Shown here one piece after another: positions 1-4,990 of a DNA stretch of 4,990 nt (the first letter of the stretch is position 1; each line of letters opens with the position of its first letter). This stretch comes from a virus (lineage: Duplodnaviria > Heunggongvirae > Uroviricota > Caudoviricetes): IMG/VR virus record IMGVR_UViG_2713896773_000012. The stretch is one strand, 5' to 3'. Position numbers and translations under genes: made by a program. The notes below the pieces were generated by a model. The model had not been told where the DNA came from. It was given only the letters and a program-made list of their open reading frames with translations, and did no database searches.

Positions 1-414
1 CTGCATCAGGCTGTTTTTTGTTTCTTCCGCCTCCCGGATCCGGAACAGTTTTTCTGCTTCCGTATCCTTCACCCAGGCTGTGCCGTTCCACTTCTGAAAC
101 TCCCCTTCCGGGGATAACCAGGTGATATTTTCCGGTAGAGGTCCGAGTTCAGAAATAAATAACGAGTCGCCGGAAGCCACGTCATAGACGTTTTTTCCCC
201 GATGATCTTCAACGAGATGCCACGATGCCTCATCACTGTTGAAAACAGCCACGAAGCCTGCCGGAATATCTGGCGGTGCAATATAGGTACTGTTTGCTGG
301 CAGACCTGTATGAGGCGGAATATATGCGTCACCTTCACCAATAAATTCATTAGTTCCGGCCAGCAGATTATAAATTTTTATGGTCCGTGGTTGTTCACTC
401 ATTCTGAATGCCAT
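1..414 (-). CDS. tfa: Tail fibre assembly protein Tfa (lambda Tfa family); ATG at 414-412, 138 codons in window with no stop, 3' end beyond window start
   Basis: Manual translation of the minus strand from 414 gives [138 protein letters not shown], open to position 1. This matches lambda Tfa as I recall it. Start overlaps the upstream stop (TAATG). Not in the ORF track because no stop lies in the window. Confidence 0.85.
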
Positions 415-2197: not shown

Positions 2198-2608
2198 ATG
2201 GATCAGGTAGTCATTTTTAAACAAATATTTGATAAAGTTCGAAACGATTTAAACTATCAATGGTTTTATTCTGAGCTAAAACGTCACAATGTCTCACATT
2301 ACATTTACTATTTAGCCACAGAGAATGTTCATATTGTATTAAAAAATGATAATACAGTGTTATTAAAGGGCCTAAAAAACATTGTGTCTGTCAAATTTTC
2401 AAAGGATAGGCATCTTATAGAAACGACCTCTAATAAGCTGAAATCCAGAGAGATCACATTTCAGGAATACAGAAGAAACCTTGCTAAAGCAGGAGTTTTT
2501 CGGTGGGTTACAAATATCCACGAACAAAAAAGATATTACTATACCTTTGATAATTCATTACTATTTACTGAAAGCATCCAGAAAACTACACAGATCTTAC
2601 CACGCTAA
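2198..2608 (+). CDS. ydfO: DUF1398-family prophage protein (YdfO/YbcV-like), 136 aa from the second ATG
   Basis: ORF-track ORF 2183..2608. The internal ATG at 2198 is preceded by GGAAGG (2185-2190) at 7-nt spacing, giving 136 aa ([30 protein letters not shown]...). Recognised as the YdfO/YbcV family; very AT-rich coding sequence. Confidence 0.75.
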
Positions 2609-2616
2609 ACCATAAC

Positions 2617-2645
2617 GTCCGGCTTCTCTCACTCCTGAGCCGGAC
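2617..2645 (+). terminator. GC-rich stem-loop just after the ydfO stop; candidate terminator with a poor U-tract
   Basis: Perfect 8-bp inverted repeat GTCCGGCT (2617-2624) / AGCCGGAC (2638-2645) with a 13-nt loop. The following sequence CTGCATTGGTTTAAT is only weakly T-rich. Confidence 0.35.
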
Positions 2646-2711
2646 TGCATTGGTTTAATAAAAACCATCAACAATTGTGATTTAGATATTCGGAACCATT
2701 CAAATATAACA

Positions 2712-2733
2712 AAACCCCGTAAAAACGAGGTTT
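2712..2733 (-). terminator. Rho-independent terminator downstream of gnsB (minus strand)
   Basis: Minus-strand RNA reads CCUCG-UUUUUA-CGGGG followed by UUUUGUUAUAUUU (5-bp stem including one G-U pair, then a U-tract). It lies 27 bp past the gnsB stop. On the plus strand the same stem has a C-A mismatch, so it is oriented for the minus strand. Confidence 0.55.
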
Positions 2734-2759
2734 ATGGATAAATTTTATTATTGAATACA

Positions 2760-2933
2760 TCAGATTAAATTAATCTTGACATCATAGCTTTCAAGACCCG
2801 TCATTTTTTCCCGTGCGGTAAACTGAATACTGGTAACTTCTTTCCCGGTCTTTTTCTTAAGTTCAATAATTTTTTTTGTTATATATTCAGAAATATCTGC
2901 TTCTGCTTTTGTTTTTAAGTTTTCAATATTCAT
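2760..2933 (-). CDS. gnsB: GnsA/GnsB-family small protein, 57 aa
   Basis: Manual minus-strand translation gives MNIENLKTKAEADISEYITKKIIELKKKTGKEVTSIQFTAREKMTGLESYDVKINLI, which carries the GnsA/GnsB signature (TGKEV...FTAREKMTGLESYDVKI). AGAGGA Shine-Dalgarno lies 4 nt upstream of the ATG at 2933. Below the length cut-off of the ORF track. Confidence 0.8.
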   Translation of the reverse strand: MNIENLKTKAEADISEYITKKIIELKKKTGKEVTSIQFTAREKMTGLESYDVKINLI

Positions 2934-2981
2934 CATTTCCTCTTTTAGTCTGTTATGACTTTCCAGTTACACAGTAAGTCG

Positions 2982-2987
2982 ATTATA
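2982..2987 (-). promoter_or_regulatory. Candidate sigma70 -10 hexamer (TATAAT) for gnsB
   Basis: Minus-strand sequence ...CTTATCTTTTACACGTTTGCACCATATAATCGACTTACTG... has a consensus TATAAT about 48 nt upstream of the gnsB ATG. The -35 region is weak (TTATCT/TTTACA with suboptimal spacing). Pattern-based only. Confidence 0.3.
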
Positions 2988-3104
2988 TGGTGCAAACGTG
3001 TAAAAGATAAGATGAAACATCGCAATAATCAACATACGATAGTCTAAATTTTACACAAACAGACAAAGAGAATTTTCCTGAATTATCAATGCAATAGCAT
3101 CAAA

Positions 3105-3335
3105 TCAACTCAAGAGCCTTATTGCTGCTTCCAGAATTTCTTCTGAAGTAACATGTCGATCCGCGGCTACATAAATGACTTTATGATCTCCGGTCAGAGA
3201 TGGAAACCCTGCGGCCATTACAGTAAGGTGTGTTTTTTCGCCATTTGGATATTCACGCATGATGGTGTTAACTCCAGTCATCGCTGGCACTACCACTGCT
3301 GGTTCAGAGTTAAAAAAAACTATGATTTTTTTCAT
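3105..3335 (-). CDS. ynfN: Small protein of the YnfN/YmcE family (76 aa from ATG 3335; alternative 51-aa product from ATG 3260)
   Basis: ORF-track ORF 3105..3377 begins at a non-ATG codon; the first ATG (3335) gives MKKIIVFFNSEPAVVVPAMTGVNTIMREYPNGEKTHLTVMAAGFPSLTGDHKVIYVAADRHVTSEEILEAAIRLLS. The internal ATG at 3260 has GGAG 11 nt upstream and gives 51 aa, the length I recall for K-12 YnfN. Position between gnsB and cspI mirrors the chromosomal gnsA-ymcE-cspG arrangement. Confidence 0.55.
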   Translation of the reverse strand: MKKIIVFFNSEPAVVVPAMTGVNTIMREYPNGEKTHLTVMAAGFPSLTGDHKVIYVAADRHVTSEEILEAAIRLLS

Positions 3336-3377
3336 GATGTTACCGTAGTATGTGAGTATCCATCGAATAGACACCAA

Positions 3378-3403
3378 GCAAAAAAGCTCCCGAAGGAGCC
3401 TTC
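3378..3403 (-). terminator. Strong Rho-independent terminator (minus strand) with a C(UUCG)G tetraloop, between the cspI remnant and ynfN
   Basis: Minus-strand RNA reads AAGGCUCC-UUCG-GGAGCUUUUUUGC: a stem of 7-8 bp (one G-U), a UUCG loop closed by C-G, then six U. Confidence 0.6.
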
Positions 3404-3606
3404 ATTTTCACTTTTTTAAATCCAACGACAGACGGCTGGCATTTAAGTATTGTGAAATATTATCAAATGTAATCATCATTGATTTACAAAAGATACATTT
3501 TGCCCCGAAAGGATTCATGTCAGAAACATCAAAAGATGATGTTCTATACTGGGAACCATGACAACACGGGCATCTAAAGTGAATATGGTTTGTAATATTG
3601 TCTACC

Positions 3607-3732
3607 TCAAAGCGCCACTACATGAACAGCGGCAGGACCTTTAGGTCCGTTCTCAATACCAAATTCAACTTCCTGATTCTCAGTTAATGTTTTGAAATCG
3701 TTGCTCTGAATTGCTGAGAAATGGACAAACAC
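3607..3732 (-). pseudogene. cspI: Cold-shock protein CspI, 3' remnant (codons 30-70 plus stop); 5' part displaced or removed by IS3
   Basis: Manual minus-strand translation from 3732 gives [41 protein letters not shown], the C-terminal two-thirds of a CspA-family protein (RNP2 motif VFVHF present, RNP1 KGFGFI absent). The reading frame runs directly into the IS3 right inverted repeat at 3733. Confidence 0.8.
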
Positions 3733-3771
3733 TGATCCTACCCACGTAATATGGACACAGGCCTAAGCGAG
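3733..3771. repeat. IS3 terminal inverted repeat at the orfB-proximal end (IRR)
   Basis: Begins TGATCC...; pairs with the 4952-4990 repeat. The orfB stop (3763-3765) lies inside it. Confidence 0.85.
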
Positions 3772-4629
3772 GTTCTTGTTTTCAAATTGTTCCGGACTGA
3801 GGCCGCCACACCAACTGTGCCGCCGCCACCGATTGTAATCACATTCGATATAATTAAACACCGTTGCCCGCATTATTTCCCGGCTGATAAAGTGTTCTCC
3901 ATGGATACATTCCACTTTCAGCGAATGAAAGAAGCTTTCCACGCAGGCATTATCGTAGCAGCAACCTTTTGCGCTCATACTTCCACGCAGATTATGCCGC
4001 TTCAGTTGCGCCTGATAATCTGCTGAACAGTACTGGCCTCCACGGTCCGTGTGAACGATAACGTTCCGGGGCCTCTTACGCCGCCACAGCGCCATCTGCA
4101 GGGCATCGCAGGCCAGTTGCGCCGTCATGCGTGGCGACATTGACCAGCCAATAACGGCACGTGACCACAGGTCAATGACCACTGCCAGATACAGCCAGCC
4201 TTCATCTGTACGTAAGTACGTGATGTCTCCTGCCCACTTCTGGTTCGGGCCACTGGCGTAAAAATCCTGCTCCAACAGATTTTCTGACACAGGCAGGCCG
4301 TGTGCGCGGTAGCTGACCGGGCTGAACTTCCGGGAGGCCTTTGCCCTCAGTCCCTGACGGCGCAGGCTTGCCGCCACGGTTTTTACGTTAAAGGGGTAAC
4401 CCTGAGCACGCAGTTCATCCGTCAGGCGTGGGGCACCGTAACGCTGTTTTGACCGGGTAAAAGCCGCGAGGACAACGCTGTCGCAGTGTTGGCGGAACTG
4501 CTGACGCGTGCTTATCCTTGTCCGCCGCTGACACCACGTATACCAGCCGCTGCGGGCCACCCGGAGCACGCGGCACATTGCTTTGATGCTGAACTCAGCC
4601 TGATGTTTTTCAATAAAGACATACTTCAT
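3763..4629 (-). CDS. insF: IS3 transposase OrfB (InsF), 288 aa, DDE catalytic domain; expressed mainly as an OrfAB fusion by -1 frameshifting
   Basis: ORF-track 288-aa protein [36 protein letters not shown]... with DDE context motifs ([29 protein letters not shown]). The ATG overlaps the orfA stop (ATGA) in the -1 frame. Confidence 0.95.
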
Positions 4630-4925
4630 TTCAGGCGCTTCGCGAAGTATGTCGCGGCCTTTTGGAGGATAGCCAGCTCTTCATCCCGTTCTGCCAGCTG
4701 GCGTTTGAGACGTGCAATCTCGGTAGACATCTCCAGTTCACGTTCAGAAGACGTCTGCTGATTTTGCTGTTTACTGCGCCAGTTGTAGAGTTGTGATTCA
4801 TACAGGCTGAGTTCACGGGCTGCGGCAGTAACACCGATGCGTTCAGCAAGCTTCAGGGCTTCACTGCGAAATTCAGGCGAATGCTGTTTACGGGGTTTTT
4901 TACTGGTTGATACTGTTTTTGTCAT
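4626..4925 (-). CDS. insE: IS3 transposase OrfA (InsE), 99 aa, helix-turn-helix/leucine-zipper subunit
   Basis: ORF-track protein (MTH)[102 protein letters not shown] at 4925 is preceded by GAGGTGA; the track start at 4934 is a GTG. Confidence 0.93.
4669..4673 (-). other. Programmed -1 ribosomal frameshift slippery site (A-AAG) for the OrfAB transposase
   Basis: Minus-strand sequence CTC CAA AAG GCC (L-Q-K-A in the orfA frame) contains A AAA G, 43-47 nt upstream of the orfA stop. The IS3 family is known to use an A-AAG shift followed by downstream structure. Confidence 0.6.
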
Positions 4926-4951
4926 GTGAGTCACCTCTGACTGAGAGTTTA

Positions 4952-4990
4952 CTCACTTAGCCGCGTGTCCACTATTGCTGGGTAAGATCA
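4952..4990. repeat. IS3 terminal inverted repeat at the orfA-proximal end (IRL)
   Basis: Reverse complement reads TGATCTTACCCAGCAATAGTGGACACGCGGCTAAGTGAG, an imperfect match to 3733-3771. Confidence 0.85.

Follow-up and report, generated by a model that had tools for sequence, protein, structure and literature searches.

The cspI–ynfQ–ynfR–ynfN–gnsB cargo block of the Escherichia coli Qin prophage: a 76-residue YnfN tied to the cold-shock operon, and an IS3 insertion in cspI

Between their late-gene blocks lambdoid prophages carry morons, such as bor and lom of lambda: accessory genes, each equipped with a promoter and a terminator. Cold-shock proteins of the CspA family (CspA, CspE and CspC) reportedly act as antiterminators at rho-independent terminators (Bae et al. 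2000 PNAS). In the Qin cryptic prophage of E. coli K-12 the genes cspI, ynfQ, ynfR, ynfN and gnsB (b1552, b4724, b4749, b1551 and b1550) stand in a row, and the chromosome bears a related group, cspG-ymcF-ymcE-gnsA. Both gnsA and gnsB were described as multicopy suppressors that raise the content of unsaturated fatty acids and, when overexpressed, suppress fabA6(Ts) and the cold sensitivity of a secG-null mutant (Sugai 2001, as cited in bioRxiv 10.1101/2024.03.27.586906 and PMC10607373). Reviews list ymcE-gnsA as a toxin-antitoxin (TA) pair, citing Wei et al. 2015 (PMC8484670, PMC6265476). An earlier note on the DNA studied here had mentioned both the membrane-lipid suppression and the proposed TA-like pairing of GnsA with YmcE, and the literature, as cited in these sources, agrees with it.

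The window, that is, the whole stretch of DNA analysed (4,990 nt, IMG/VR record IMGVR_UViG_2713896773_000012), contains the well-known Qin cargo block cspI–ynfQ–ynfR–ynfN–gnsB interrupted by IS3 (Table 1). Many E. coli genomes have a Qin prophage locus that agrees with positions 2600–3732 at 100% identity, a match is present in 2,177 of the 5,426 complete genomes compared, and the alignment with MG1655 reveals a single different base over the same positions. K-12 has the genes in the same order, with the same neighbours ydfO, ynfO and nohA, so this is the same locus, from which the window differs by an IS3 in cspI at the codon 29/30 boundary and by the state of ynfN described below. It is an ordinary locus with pre-existing annotation, to which our analysis adds modest annotation lessons. 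In prophages the cassette sits between the lysis and terminase genes. Like lambdoid morons, it has this lysis/terminase location, comprises self-contained units with their own terminators and varies in content among related prophages; unlike them, it brings a cold-shock and lipid-remodelling set instead of virulence or exclusion genes. The reading we favour, with a probability of roughly 0.7, is that of a moron cassette made of a csp operon and a separate gnsB unit, with a 76-aa ynfN and a cspI broken by IS3. Such a region would be an accessory cassette of Qin-type lambdoid prophages.

Table 1. Features of the cargo block and the adjoining insertion element (positions in the window)
Feature	Position	Strand	Description	Basis
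Terminator 3′ of gnsB	2706..2733	-	intrinsic; 9-bp stem and U-rich tail	terminator scan
gnsB	2760..2933	-	57 aa, GnsA/GnsB family	PF08178, RefSeq coordinates
Promoter-like block	2982..3032	-	in the ynfN-gnsB spacer	conservation
ynfN	3105..3335	-	76 aa, WP_000720962.1 (PGAP)	annotation, phrog_3425, conservation, AF2
MG1655 model of ynfN	3105-3260	-	51 aa	curated record
Slippage-prone tracts	3312..3332	-	A7 (3332-3326) and T8 (3319-3312), ynfN codons 2-8	window/MG1655 alignment
ynfR	3340..3405	-	21 aa (MKAPSGAFLLGVYSMDTHILR)	RefSeq annotation
Hairpin, intrinsic-terminator-like	3380..3402	-	GGCUCC-UUCG-GGAGC and U6, directly 3′ of ynfQ	RNA fold, dG -13 kcal/mol
ynfQ	3408..3596	-	62 aa, YmcF-like CxxC...CxxC zinc-ribbon, ATT start annotated	RefSeq, PF23641
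cspI 3′ fragment	3607..3732	-	codons 30-70 only, 41 aa	comparison with intact cspI
IS3	3733..4990	orfA and orfB on -	complete, 1,258 bp	ORFs, annotation in matching genomes

On the opposite (+) strand, the open reading frames 3153-3419 and 3352-3561, antisense to ynfN and ynfQ, are unannotated in every matching genome.

At its upstream end the block is cut. The earlier note had placed a cold-shock domain (CSD) frame, named cspI, at this end of the cluster, which is correct for the frame itself; it is, however, a remnant left by IS3, aligning with positions 27–65 only of the CSD profile (PF00313). The promoter, 5′UTR and codons 1–29 of cspI are absent from the window. A complete cold-shock domain of about 66 residues with the N-terminal RNP1/RNP2 strands, as in the CspA family, is thus not found here, and the window cspI is a gene fragment, not a functional family member. 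The Rfam search gave a sub-threshold remnant of the cspA thermoregulator (26 bits vs a gathering score of 78), which fits the truncation, a second sub-threshold match to a truncated IS009, and nothing else. IS3 replaces the rest of cspI, its far terminus coinciding with the end of the window. With about 1.26 kb, orfA/orfB and terminal inverted repeats TGATC..., the insertion is an IS3 element; its ends read TGATCCTACCC and the reverse complement of TGATCTTACCC, and the matching genomes label it [quoted passage not shown]. Its reading frames comprise a GTG-started one of 102 aa followed by a 288-aa orfB-like one. From the known InsE sequence, the orfA protein presumably starts at the internal MTKTV of the 102-aa frame. 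The cspI::IS3 junction occurs in 0 of the 5,426 complete genomes and is known from the assembled sequence alone, the window stopping at the IS end. Since IS3 took the promoter, the 5′UTR and the first 29 codons, CspI is inactivated, and the loss of the promoter and 5′UTR uncouples ynfQ-ynfR-ynfN from cold induction in the window.

Between cspI and ynfN there are two annotated genes, ynfQ and ynfR, which had been overlooked previously. The ynfQ product matches PF23641 in a profile search (E=2.1e-27), its RCPCC...CIFC motifs align with those of YmcF, and, with two CxxC pairs and a position directly after a csp gene, it belongs to this family. Its Shine-Dalgarno sequence GAGG overlaps the cspI stop. 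The genes are tightly packed: ynfQ lies 10 nt from cspI, ynfR starts 2 nt past the ynfQ stop, and the ynfR stop is 4 nt ahead of the ynfN ATG. The ynfR frame accommodates the hairpin listed in Table 1. Its product has been detected as YnfR-SPA, which is induced by cold shock (PMC6001520), and the SPA tag sits downstream of the hairpin. YnfR is conserved in one E. coli haplotype only; in haplotype 2 its frame is a “too short” pseudogene, and it is not conserved in the Citrobacter loci either, so that models relying on the ynfR peptide are weakened. The strong terminator that the earlier note had seen between cspI and ynfN is borne out as a stable hairpin with a U-tract. The loop is cUUCGg. Of 15 gns-linked loci that we compared, 14 show a hairpin and T-tract at the same position, with compensatory changes; the exception (L027) has the stem without the T-run. 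A GC-rich stem-loop followed by a U-tract on the transcribed strand is what defines an intrinsic (rho-independent) terminator, and termination at this site is predicted.

The results allow us to conclude that ynfN belongs with the csp operon in front of it and not with gnsB. Upon AZT induction, cspI, ynfQ and ynfN rise 6.5-, 5.9- and 5.8-fold, and their dependence on SspA runs in parallel (38-, 42- and 51-fold, PMC11228462). Distant homologues of YnfN are always found downstream of a csp gene, and the csp-ynfN linkage is maintained where gns is absent. The spacer between ynfN and gnsB comprises 171 nt with the promoter-like block inside, and 204 nt in Citrobacter-type loci. Given the 4-nt distance to ynfR, the 171-nt spacer before gnsB, the co-induction and the csp linkage even without gns, the proposal that ynfN and gnsB form a unit of their own is unlikely.

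The gnsB gene itself is clear-cut. Its product covers positions 1–54 of the 54-position PF08178 profile (E=3.3e-35), matches the solved structures PDB 4XO1/4XO2 of “Protein GnsA” (E about 1e-20) and, being full-length against both the profile and GnsA, is a member of the GnsA/GnsB family; the K-12 gnsB sequence is the same as that in the window. A GnsA/GnsB-family frame on the minus strand had been recognized before, with the start at 2936, one codon upstream of the RefSeq start at 2933. This extra in-frame ATG would make a 58-aa protein, and the spacing from the Shine-Dalgarno GAGG fits 2933 better. The promoter-like block in front of gnsB consists of TTGATT (3032-3027), 17 nt, TATCTT (3009-3004) and a perfect TATAAT (2987-2982). 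Chromosomal, prophage-type and “no middle gene” loci all retain it ahead of gns, and it is collinear with nt 104–123 of ymcE. Scoring about 8/12, it falls below the consensus scanner threshold, so that for gnsB we can only infer a promoter function. The terminator 3′ of gnsB folds with dG -11 kcal/mol (z = -3.2).

The comparison with the chromosomal locus shows how far the resemblance goes. The cassette was said to mirror this locus, and it does so in its csp gene, ymcF/ynfQ, hairpin and gns, four of five elements, with the same order and strand logic. CspI and CspG share 79% of their amino acids, YnfQ and YmcF 66%, GnsB and GnsA 67% over 57 aa; the hairpin after ymcF/ynfQ, the promoter-like block and the gns-upstream RBS region are common as well. 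The middle elements, on the contrary, are unrelated: Qin has a conserved 76-aa ynfN, the chromosome the “ymcE” frame. The two had been grouped as one YmcE/YnfN type, but BLASTP gave no alignment of YnfN with YmcE at E<=100, and YnfN is not a member of the YmcE family. At the DNA level, the matches of ymcE are confined to the 3′ end of ynfQ with the hairpin, to the block in the spacer and to the RBS of gnsB, leaving ynfN unmatched. The ymcE frame, of 76 codons, shares sequence with ymcF, the terminator and gnsA by overlap and holds the chromosomal equivalent of the hairpin inside it; it is composed of homologues of the ymcF 3′ end with the terminator and of the gns promoter with the 5′UTR. Its start or frame is lost in six of eight Escherichia lineages, in which gnsA is conserved. 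That YmcE and YnfN both have 76 codons was considered as a sign of homology and rejected, as there is no BLASTP alignment and the DNA matches lie elsewhere. The Qin cassette is a paralogue of the chromosomal cspG-ymcF-hairpin-gnsA, its sole real difference being the presence of ynfN after the hairpin and before the promoter region of gns.

As to ynfN, its real coding sequence is the 76-aa form starting with ATG 3335. It had been noticed from the sequence that the frame is open for 76 codons from this ATG, which we confirm, and that the start is ambiguous. The ambiguity is genuine, as PGAP and the curated record of MG1655 give different starts, and it is decided here for 76 aa; two more in-frame ATGs follow at 3281 (Met19) and 3260 (Met26, the start of the 51-aa form). 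The ATGs at 3335 and 3260 correspond to MG1655 coordinates 1638183 and 1638109, and the 76-aa and 51-aa forms would have masses of about 8.4 and 5.6 kDa. The check that had been suggested, conservation of the N-terminal extension across homologues, comes out in favour of the long form: the N-terminal 25 residues are kept in homologues down to 52% identity, and all unextended full-length homologues in this range start with M-x-K-(V/I)-(I/L)-V-F-F-N, K3, F7, F8 and N9 being invariant. Met26 is Cys or Thr in some homologues, and Met19 is variable too. Codons 1–25 are under purifying selection (pN 0.10–0.16 vs pS 0.64–0.74), resembling the remainder of the gene. The phrog_3425 profile matches positions 1–76 of 76 (E=7e-54), the profile search returned proteins of about 75 aa aligning to YnfN from position 1, and the PGAP name “protein YnfN”, phrog_3425 and the N-terminal MKK(I/V)IVFFN all assign the protein to the YnfN family. 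The window coordinates are those of the DH5alpha gene WP_000720962.1, the stretch being 100% identical. Pfam and NCBIfam scans gave no match for YnfN or YnfR. The AF2 model of YnfN (pLDDT 86.6) predicts a five-stranded beta-sheet with a C-terminal helix, and no structural relative of it was recognisable. Because strands beta1 and beta2 of the model fall within residues 2–18 (residues 2–7 and 14–18 forming core strands), the 51-aa fragment would be without part of the sheet.

The single base that separates MG1655 from the window accounts for the conflict between the records. MG1655 has T7, a frameshift and the 51-aa annotation, and the window has T8 and an intact 76-aa ynfN; as judged from this alignment, the 51-aa model is a by-product of a -1 frameshift (T8 -> T7) in K-12 MG1655. 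Among complete genomes with the Qin haplotype, 1,045 match T8 exactly and 417 match T7 exactly; most of the T7 genomes sampled are K-12 laboratory derivatives, one clonal lineage. E. coli HS is an example of a T8 strain. The DH5alpha assembly CP026085.1, a K-12 derivative, reads T8. PGAP labels T7-type alleles “frameshifted”, those of natural isolates included. Alleles with A8 (+1) and T7 (-1) occur on at least three haplotype backgrounds, and this recurrence suggests weak selection on ynfN in E. coli. The assumption that every row of 70 nt (minus one base) represents a ynfN frameshift was rejected, given that Ecol_AZ147 has its deletion ahead of the coding sequence and an intact ynfN.

Two other interpretations of these data have to be weighed. 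The short YnfN (51 aa from Met26, or 58 aa from Met19) might be a genuine product of internal initiation, made alongside the 76-aa protein or replacing it. The ATG at 3260 does have the strongest anti-SD pairing of the three, with GGAG in front of it (-5.9 kcal/mol vs a weak -3.0 kcal/mol at 3335), phrog_4911 adopts the 51-aa form as the curated record of MG1655 does, and none of the frameshift alleles closes the frame toward the C-terminus. The distance from this SD to the ATG is, however, 11 nt, and the short form is at odds with the poor conservation of Met26 and Met19, with the conserved residues 1–25, under purifying selection and holding the predicted beta1 and beta2, and with PGAP counting T7 alleles as frameshifted pseudogenes. 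We therefore consider internal initiation improbable. Alternatively, A7 and T8 could serve as a contingency (phase-variable) switch of YnfN, operating through slipped-strand mispairing or transcriptional slippage, in line with the A8 and T7 alleles on at least three haplotypes, in K-12 and in natural pig and chicken isolates. Such a switch accords poorly with the excess of exact T8 over exact T7 matches, the latter mostly from a clonal laboratory lineage as sampled, and with runs of 7–8 nt, which are short beside those of contingency loci of the classical type. Part of the variation could stem from miscalled homopolymers in older or long-read assemblies, and one of the 70-nt rows inspected has its deletion outside the coding sequence. 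Phase variation is thus, in our opinion, quite unlikely, and a 76-aa gene with a frameshift allele in K-12 is the reading we retain.

The third interpretation concerns the pair ynfN-gnsB, which was suggested to be TA-like: by analogy with ymcE-gnsA, YnfN would neutralise a GnsB toxin as in type II systems. The resemblance consists in two small adjacent same-strand genes on a mobile element, ynfN lying upstream, and in the name “GnsA/GnsB addiction module toxin” that Pfam and PGAP give to the family of the downstream gene, in addition to the above reviews on ymcE-gnsA. Moreover, ynfN is upstream in 94 of 107 sampled gns loci, a sample dominated by close relatives, and in a SLING-based survey the partners of GnsAB_toxin are strictly upstream (PMC10790755). 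Type II pairs are compact bicistrons, overlapping or a few nt apart, but gnsB is preceded by 171 nt with the promoter-like block, vs only 4 nt from the ynfR stop to ynfN. Nor do the two genes co-occur obligatorily, as YnfN homologues are found with csp and without gns, and gns with no middle gene (L030) or next to the non-homologous ymcE region. YnfN has no antitoxin or DNA-binding domain (RHH, HTH, AbrB, Phd/YefM or similar) and resembles no antitoxin or defence protein in family or in fold, and no PADLOC model matched GnsB, YnfN, YnfQ, YnfR or YmcE. As YnfN and YmcE lack homology, a role as antitoxin cannot be carried over from the latter to the former, and the template pair is itself doubtful in view of the patchwork origin of the ymcE frame and its loss beside a retained gnsA. 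Frameshifted, naturally inactivated ynfN stands beside an intact gnsB “toxin” in K-12, as it does in at least 15 of the loci sampled, from several haplotypes. Finally, the gns overexpression phenotypes published in Sugai 2001, as cited, are those of suppression and rescue instead of growth arrest: a plasmid with gnsA or gnsB and no partner rescues growth, with no killing. Taken together, homology, spacing, linkage and frameshift coexistence leave the TA proposal unsupported, and we regard it as very unlikely.

Returning to the moron cassette, we propose that it works in two parts, the cold-shock operon cspI-ynfQ-(hairpin/ynfR)-ynfN, and gnsB with its own promoter-like element and terminator. 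In the cold, synthesis of CspI and YnfQ would be driven by the promoter and 5′UTR of cspI, and some transcripts would read past the hairpin, thereby allowing YnfR and YnfN to be expressed. Ribosomes that end ynfQ, or that translate ynfR across the 5′ side of the stem, could help read-through, and Csp-type antitermination might possibly do so too. A csp gene, an intrinsic terminator, a downstream cold-shock product (YnfR-SPA) and co-variation with cspI recall the CspA-family operons and Csp antitermination; the difference is that a role of CspI at the Qin hairpin would follow from mechanistic analogy only. GnsB, if made, would move membrane lipids toward unsaturated, acidic species, and the whole cassette may represent a cold-adaptation module for the lysogen. 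More tentatively, one may envisage a core of csp, ymcF-like gene, terminator and ynfN to which gns is optional, with an attenuator gating YnfN, an unreal “YmcE” and a wrong toxin label on Gns, a joint reading that we hold possible and no better than doubtful. Its attenuator would be a cold- or translation-responsive hairpin, melted by the Csp encoded upstream or masked by ribosomes on ynfQ/ynfR, which is likewise speculative. Equally conjectural, YnfN would be a 76-aa cold-shock accessory protein of novel fold, and GnsA/GnsB small lipid-remodelling regulators.

For annotation, the consequences are straightforward. The 51-aa YnfN of the E. coli K-12 reference record and UniProt is a frameshift remnant, so that work on “YnfN” in K-12 concerns a broken allele, whereas most E. 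coli strains having the gene encode the conserved 76-aa protein. The name “addiction module toxin” of gnsA/gnsB depends on YmcE, whose frame is unconserved even within Escherichia, and caution is advised with TA catalogues and models that include ymcE-gnsA. The csp-ymcF-ynfN linkage, together with the conserved terminator, offers a small testable system for the control of read-through during cold shock.

The window is a segment of an E. coli Qin-type lambdoid prophage, and the locus is an ordinary one that has already been annotated: many E. coli genomes share positions 2600–3732 at 100% identity, and a match is present in 2,177 of the 5,426 complete genomes. To build the gene map, the RefSeq annotation was carried over from DH5alpha and MG1655 and combined with direct reading of the sequence. 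The earlier note was right about gnsB, ynfN, the hairpin and cspI; it overlooked ynfQ and ynfR, and did not remark that cspI is only a fragment. Between gnsB and nohA, on the strand opposite to the cassette, come the uncharacterised ynfO and ydfO, arranged as in K-12. Tail-fibre-like ORF fragments at the left end of the window abut nohA. In most genomes the match with the window begins only at position 1006, suggesting that a deletion or recombination junction lies there.

Features of the window, with the segments of chromosomal ymcE collinear with it
Feature	Position	Strand	Remarks
IS3	3733–4990		complete, 1,258 bp; transposase on same strand as cspI
cspI′ fragment	3732–3607	minus	codons 30–70 only
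ynfQ	3596–3408	minus	62 aa; ATT start (3596–3594); YmcF-like zinc ribbon; PF23641, E=2e-27
ynfR	3405–3340	minus	21 aa
ynfN	3335–3105	minus	76 aa
A7 tract of ynfN	3332–3326
T8 tract of ynfN	3319–3312
ynfN–gnsB spacer		minus	171 nt
gnsB	2933–2760	minus	57 aa; PF08178, E=3e-35
Terminator	2733–2706	minus	3′ end of cassette, after gnsB
ydfO	2183–2608	plus	DUF1398
ynfO	1907–2140	plus	DUF3950, YlcI/YnfO family
Tail-fibre-like ORF fragments	1–1005	minus	e.g., 414–722, 689–976
Rfam IS009 match	1–71		truncated; 64 bits, below gathering score 117
ymcE nt 7–53	3427–3380		ynfQ 3′ end and hairpin; 78%
ymcE nt 104–123	3034–3014		promoter-like block in ynfN–gnsB spacer
ymcE nt 202–231	2951–2923		gnsB RBS and start

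The ynfN gene is annotated as 51 aa in MG1655 and as 76 aa by PGAP, and this conflict comes down to one base. The T8 allele is found in the window and in 1,045 genomes (exact 71-nt match), and T7 in MG1655 and 417 genomes (exact match), those sampled being overwhelmingly K-12 laboratory derivatives. With T7, reading from the upstream ATG stops after 14 codons (MKKIIVFLTLNQQW, then a stop), and therefore the annotators resorted to Met26, which has the best Shine–Dalgarno sequence (GGAG, −5.9 vs. −3.0 kcal/mol for ATG1). The 76-codon frame pointed out in the earlier note stands, since its N-terminal part is conserved. All unextended full-length homologues down to 52% identity, coming from Citrobacter, other Enterobacteriaceae and metagenomes, begin M-x-K-(V/I)-(I/L)-V-F-F-N with K3, F7, F8 and N9 invariant, and several of them have Cys or Thr in place of Met26. 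Against Citrobacter-type homologues, codons 1–25 show pN of 0.10–0.16 and pS of 0.64–0.74, and codons 26–75 follow the same regime; the ratios of ~0.06–0.12 are approximate because dS is near saturation. A profile search over 1.84 billion representatives returned only 45 proteins, mostly of ~75 aa, matching from profile position 1, and the phrog_3425 match covers residues 1–76 of 76. The AlphaFold2 model (pLDDT 86.6) comprises a five-stranded sheet and a C-terminal helix, with strands beta1 (residues 2–7) and beta2 (14–18) at pLDDT ~90; a structure search with it gave no match in PDB or BFVD. Moreover, PGAP labels T7-type alleles of natural isolates as "frameshifted". Taken together, the homologue N-termini, codon statistics, profile searches and predicted structure settle that the 76-aa YnfN is the real gene product; the K-12 ynfN is a frameshift remnant.

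Two adjacent homopolymers, A7 and T8, open the gene (codons 2–8), and the A8 (+1) and T7 (−1) alleles are found repeatedly, on no fewer than three haplotypes, natural isolates included (length alleles in loci L017, L066, L078, L105, L108, L126 and L127). A true phase-variation switch for ynfN is a possible but unlikely explanation; the recurrence could reflect slippage under weak selection or, in part, homopolymer miscalling. Within the second major haplotype (556 genomes), ~10% of the sampled rows are one base short, and those inspected were one PGAP-flagged frameshift and one deletion outside the CDS. MG1655, DH1, JM109 and MC4100 read T7; the T8 of one K-12 derivative assembly, DH5alpha CP026085.1, stems from either a reversion or a miscalled homopolymer.

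The proposed likeness to the chromosomal cspG-ymcE-gnsA locus holds for four of the five elements. The chromosomal order is cspG-ymcF-ymcE-gnsA, identity being 79% for CspI and CspG, 66% for YnfQ and YmcF, and 67% for GnsB and GnsA, and DNA homology spans csp, ymcF/ynfQ and the hairpin with its T-tract right after the ymcF/ynfQ stop. It is gone across the middle and returns ~20 nt before the gns start; the middle ORFs are unrelated. YnfN as a "YmcE-type" ORF was ruled out, as BLASTP gave no alignment with YmcE even at E≤100, and their equal length of 76 codons is a coincidence. In a finer DNA comparison, the 231-nt ymcE ORF aligned collinearly with three stretches of the Qin locus, all of them outside ynfN (see the table). 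The rare ATT start is annotated for ymcF too (2685–2687 in L002, the chromosomal locus) and is conserved between the loci, preceded by a GAGG Shine–Dalgarno sequence overlapping the csp stop codon (aSD dG −6.9 kcal/mol).

Among eight Escherichia lineages in which cspG, ymcF and gnsA are at least 92% identical, the ymcE ATG is missing or the ORF interrupted in six, the DNA itself being well conserved: the ATG is lost in four, and four have a frame broken by stops or indels, namely E. ruysiae, Escherichia sp. E1V33, E. whittamii and one E. coli. An intact ATG-initiated 76-codon ymcE is confined to the copies from K-12-like E. coli and from S. flexneri. In L002, ymcE (2848–3078; loci L032–L040 compared) overlaps the ymcF 3′ end, the terminator hairpin, a promoter-like block and the gnsA RBS. 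Probably, ymcE is regulatory DNA and not a protein gene.

This bears on the suggestion that ynfN and gnsB form a toxin–antitoxin (TA) pair. The literature to which the earlier note alludes exists: bioRxiv 10.1101/2024.03.27.586906 and PMC10607373 describe multicopy gnsA/gnsB as suppressors raising unsaturated fatty acids (after Sugai 2001), and PMC8484670 and PMC6265476 include ymcE-gnsA in type II TA listings after Wei et al. 2015; the Pfam and PGAP names of the gns family also contain "toxin". However, the YmcE-GnsA template is itself weak, and the evidence is against a ynfN-gnsB pair. Among the families and folds scanned, neither YmcE nor any antitoxin or defence protein proved homologous to YnfN. 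The gene geometry is not compact, and co-occurrence is not obligate: across 107 sampled gns loci, whose viral part is mostly close relatives, the middle element is ynfN in 94, a ymcE-like sequence in 12 and nothing in one. A frameshifted ynfN accompanies intact gnsB in K-12 as well as in at least 15 of the loci sampled, on several haplotype backgrounds, although residual activity is conceivable, the C-terminal two-thirds of YnfN being open in all frameshift alleles. Moreover, plasmid-borne gnsA or gnsB rescues growth partner-free, according to the same two sources (bioRxiv 10.1101/2024.03.27.586906, PMC10607373).

Nor are ynfN and gnsB likely to form a unit of their own, a possibility raised because of the hairpin upstream. 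Intergenic spacings are 10 nt (cspI-ynfQ), 2 nt (ynfQ-ynfR), 4 nt (ynfR-ynfN) and 171 nt (ynfN-gnsB). The hairpin lies inside ynfR (GGCUCC-UUCG-GGAGC plus U6, dG −13 kcal/mol), and it is a genuine conserved element, since 14 of the 15 gns-linked loci examined keep a hairpin with a T-tract 4–10 nt past the ymcF-like stop (in the exception, L027, the stem lacks the T-run), with compensatory changes (e.g., GGCTCC/GGAGCC to GGCCCC/GGGGCC in L030). The ynfR gene is not conserved: the second E. coli haplotype (L125, L126) has only a 39-nt pseudogene flagged "too short", and Citrobacter loci L022–L029 lack ynfR, the overlapped hairpin being retained in both. The hairpin is evidently leaky, because cold shock strongly induces YnfR-SPA, whose tag is encoded beyond the stem (PMC6001520). 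The cspI, ynfQ and ynfN genes were induced in parallel in an AZT transcriptome (6.5-, 5.9- and 5.8-fold), with SspA dependence of 38-, 42- and 51-fold, respectively (PMC11228462). The 76%-identical YnfN homologue is always found in the order csp, ymcF-like, ynfN, gns, between lysis and terminase genes; those 52–60% identical follow csp and a ymcF-like remnant, with neither gns nor the hairpin at their loci. In the distant loci, a second YnfN paralogue (36–55% identical) lies upstream of csp, so that a ynfN-like gene stands on either side of it (L012 3037–3279, icd adjoining; L013 2165–2407; L015 725–952). Spacing, co-regulation and comparative context thus place ynfN at the distal end of the cspI operon. 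A promoter-like block upstream of gns (TTGATT, 17 nt, TATCTT) is common to all three architectures, with an additional perfect TATAAT in E. coli; since it scores below the threshold of the promoter scanner, its function is inferred. Probably, gnsB has its own promoter.

In the window, IS3, whose terminus is the exact window end, has replaced the cspI promoter, 5′ UTR and first 29 codons; cspI is thereby inactivated and the downstream genes are severed from the cold-shock promoter. The junction (3732/3733) is absent from all 5,426 complete genomes. In UMB200201_11 (L124), cspI is intact, and an independent IS3 in the same orientation sits ~40 nt upstream of it. In at least 12 genomes (H1–H12), IS1 lies somewhere within the stretch matching 2600–3732, giving two-piece matches spanning ~1.9 kb. 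Taking the IS1 and IS3 insertions together, the cassette seems to be a hotspot for IS elements.

Most likely, the cassette is a prophage "moron" for cold adaptation. The cold-inducible csp operon would supply the CspI RNA chaperone and the YnfQ zinc-ribbon peptide, partial read-through of the hairpin would add YnfR and YnfN, and the lipid-remodelling regulator GnsB would be paired with them. Two routes of read-through are plausible: ribosomes ending at the ynfQ stop (3410–3408) or translating ynfR may cover the 5′ stem arm (3400–3395), or Csp proteins, which are known antiterminators, may act on the hairpin. For annotation, the results call for caution both with ynfN of K-12, as a frameshift remnant, and with ymcE, which is probably not a gene.
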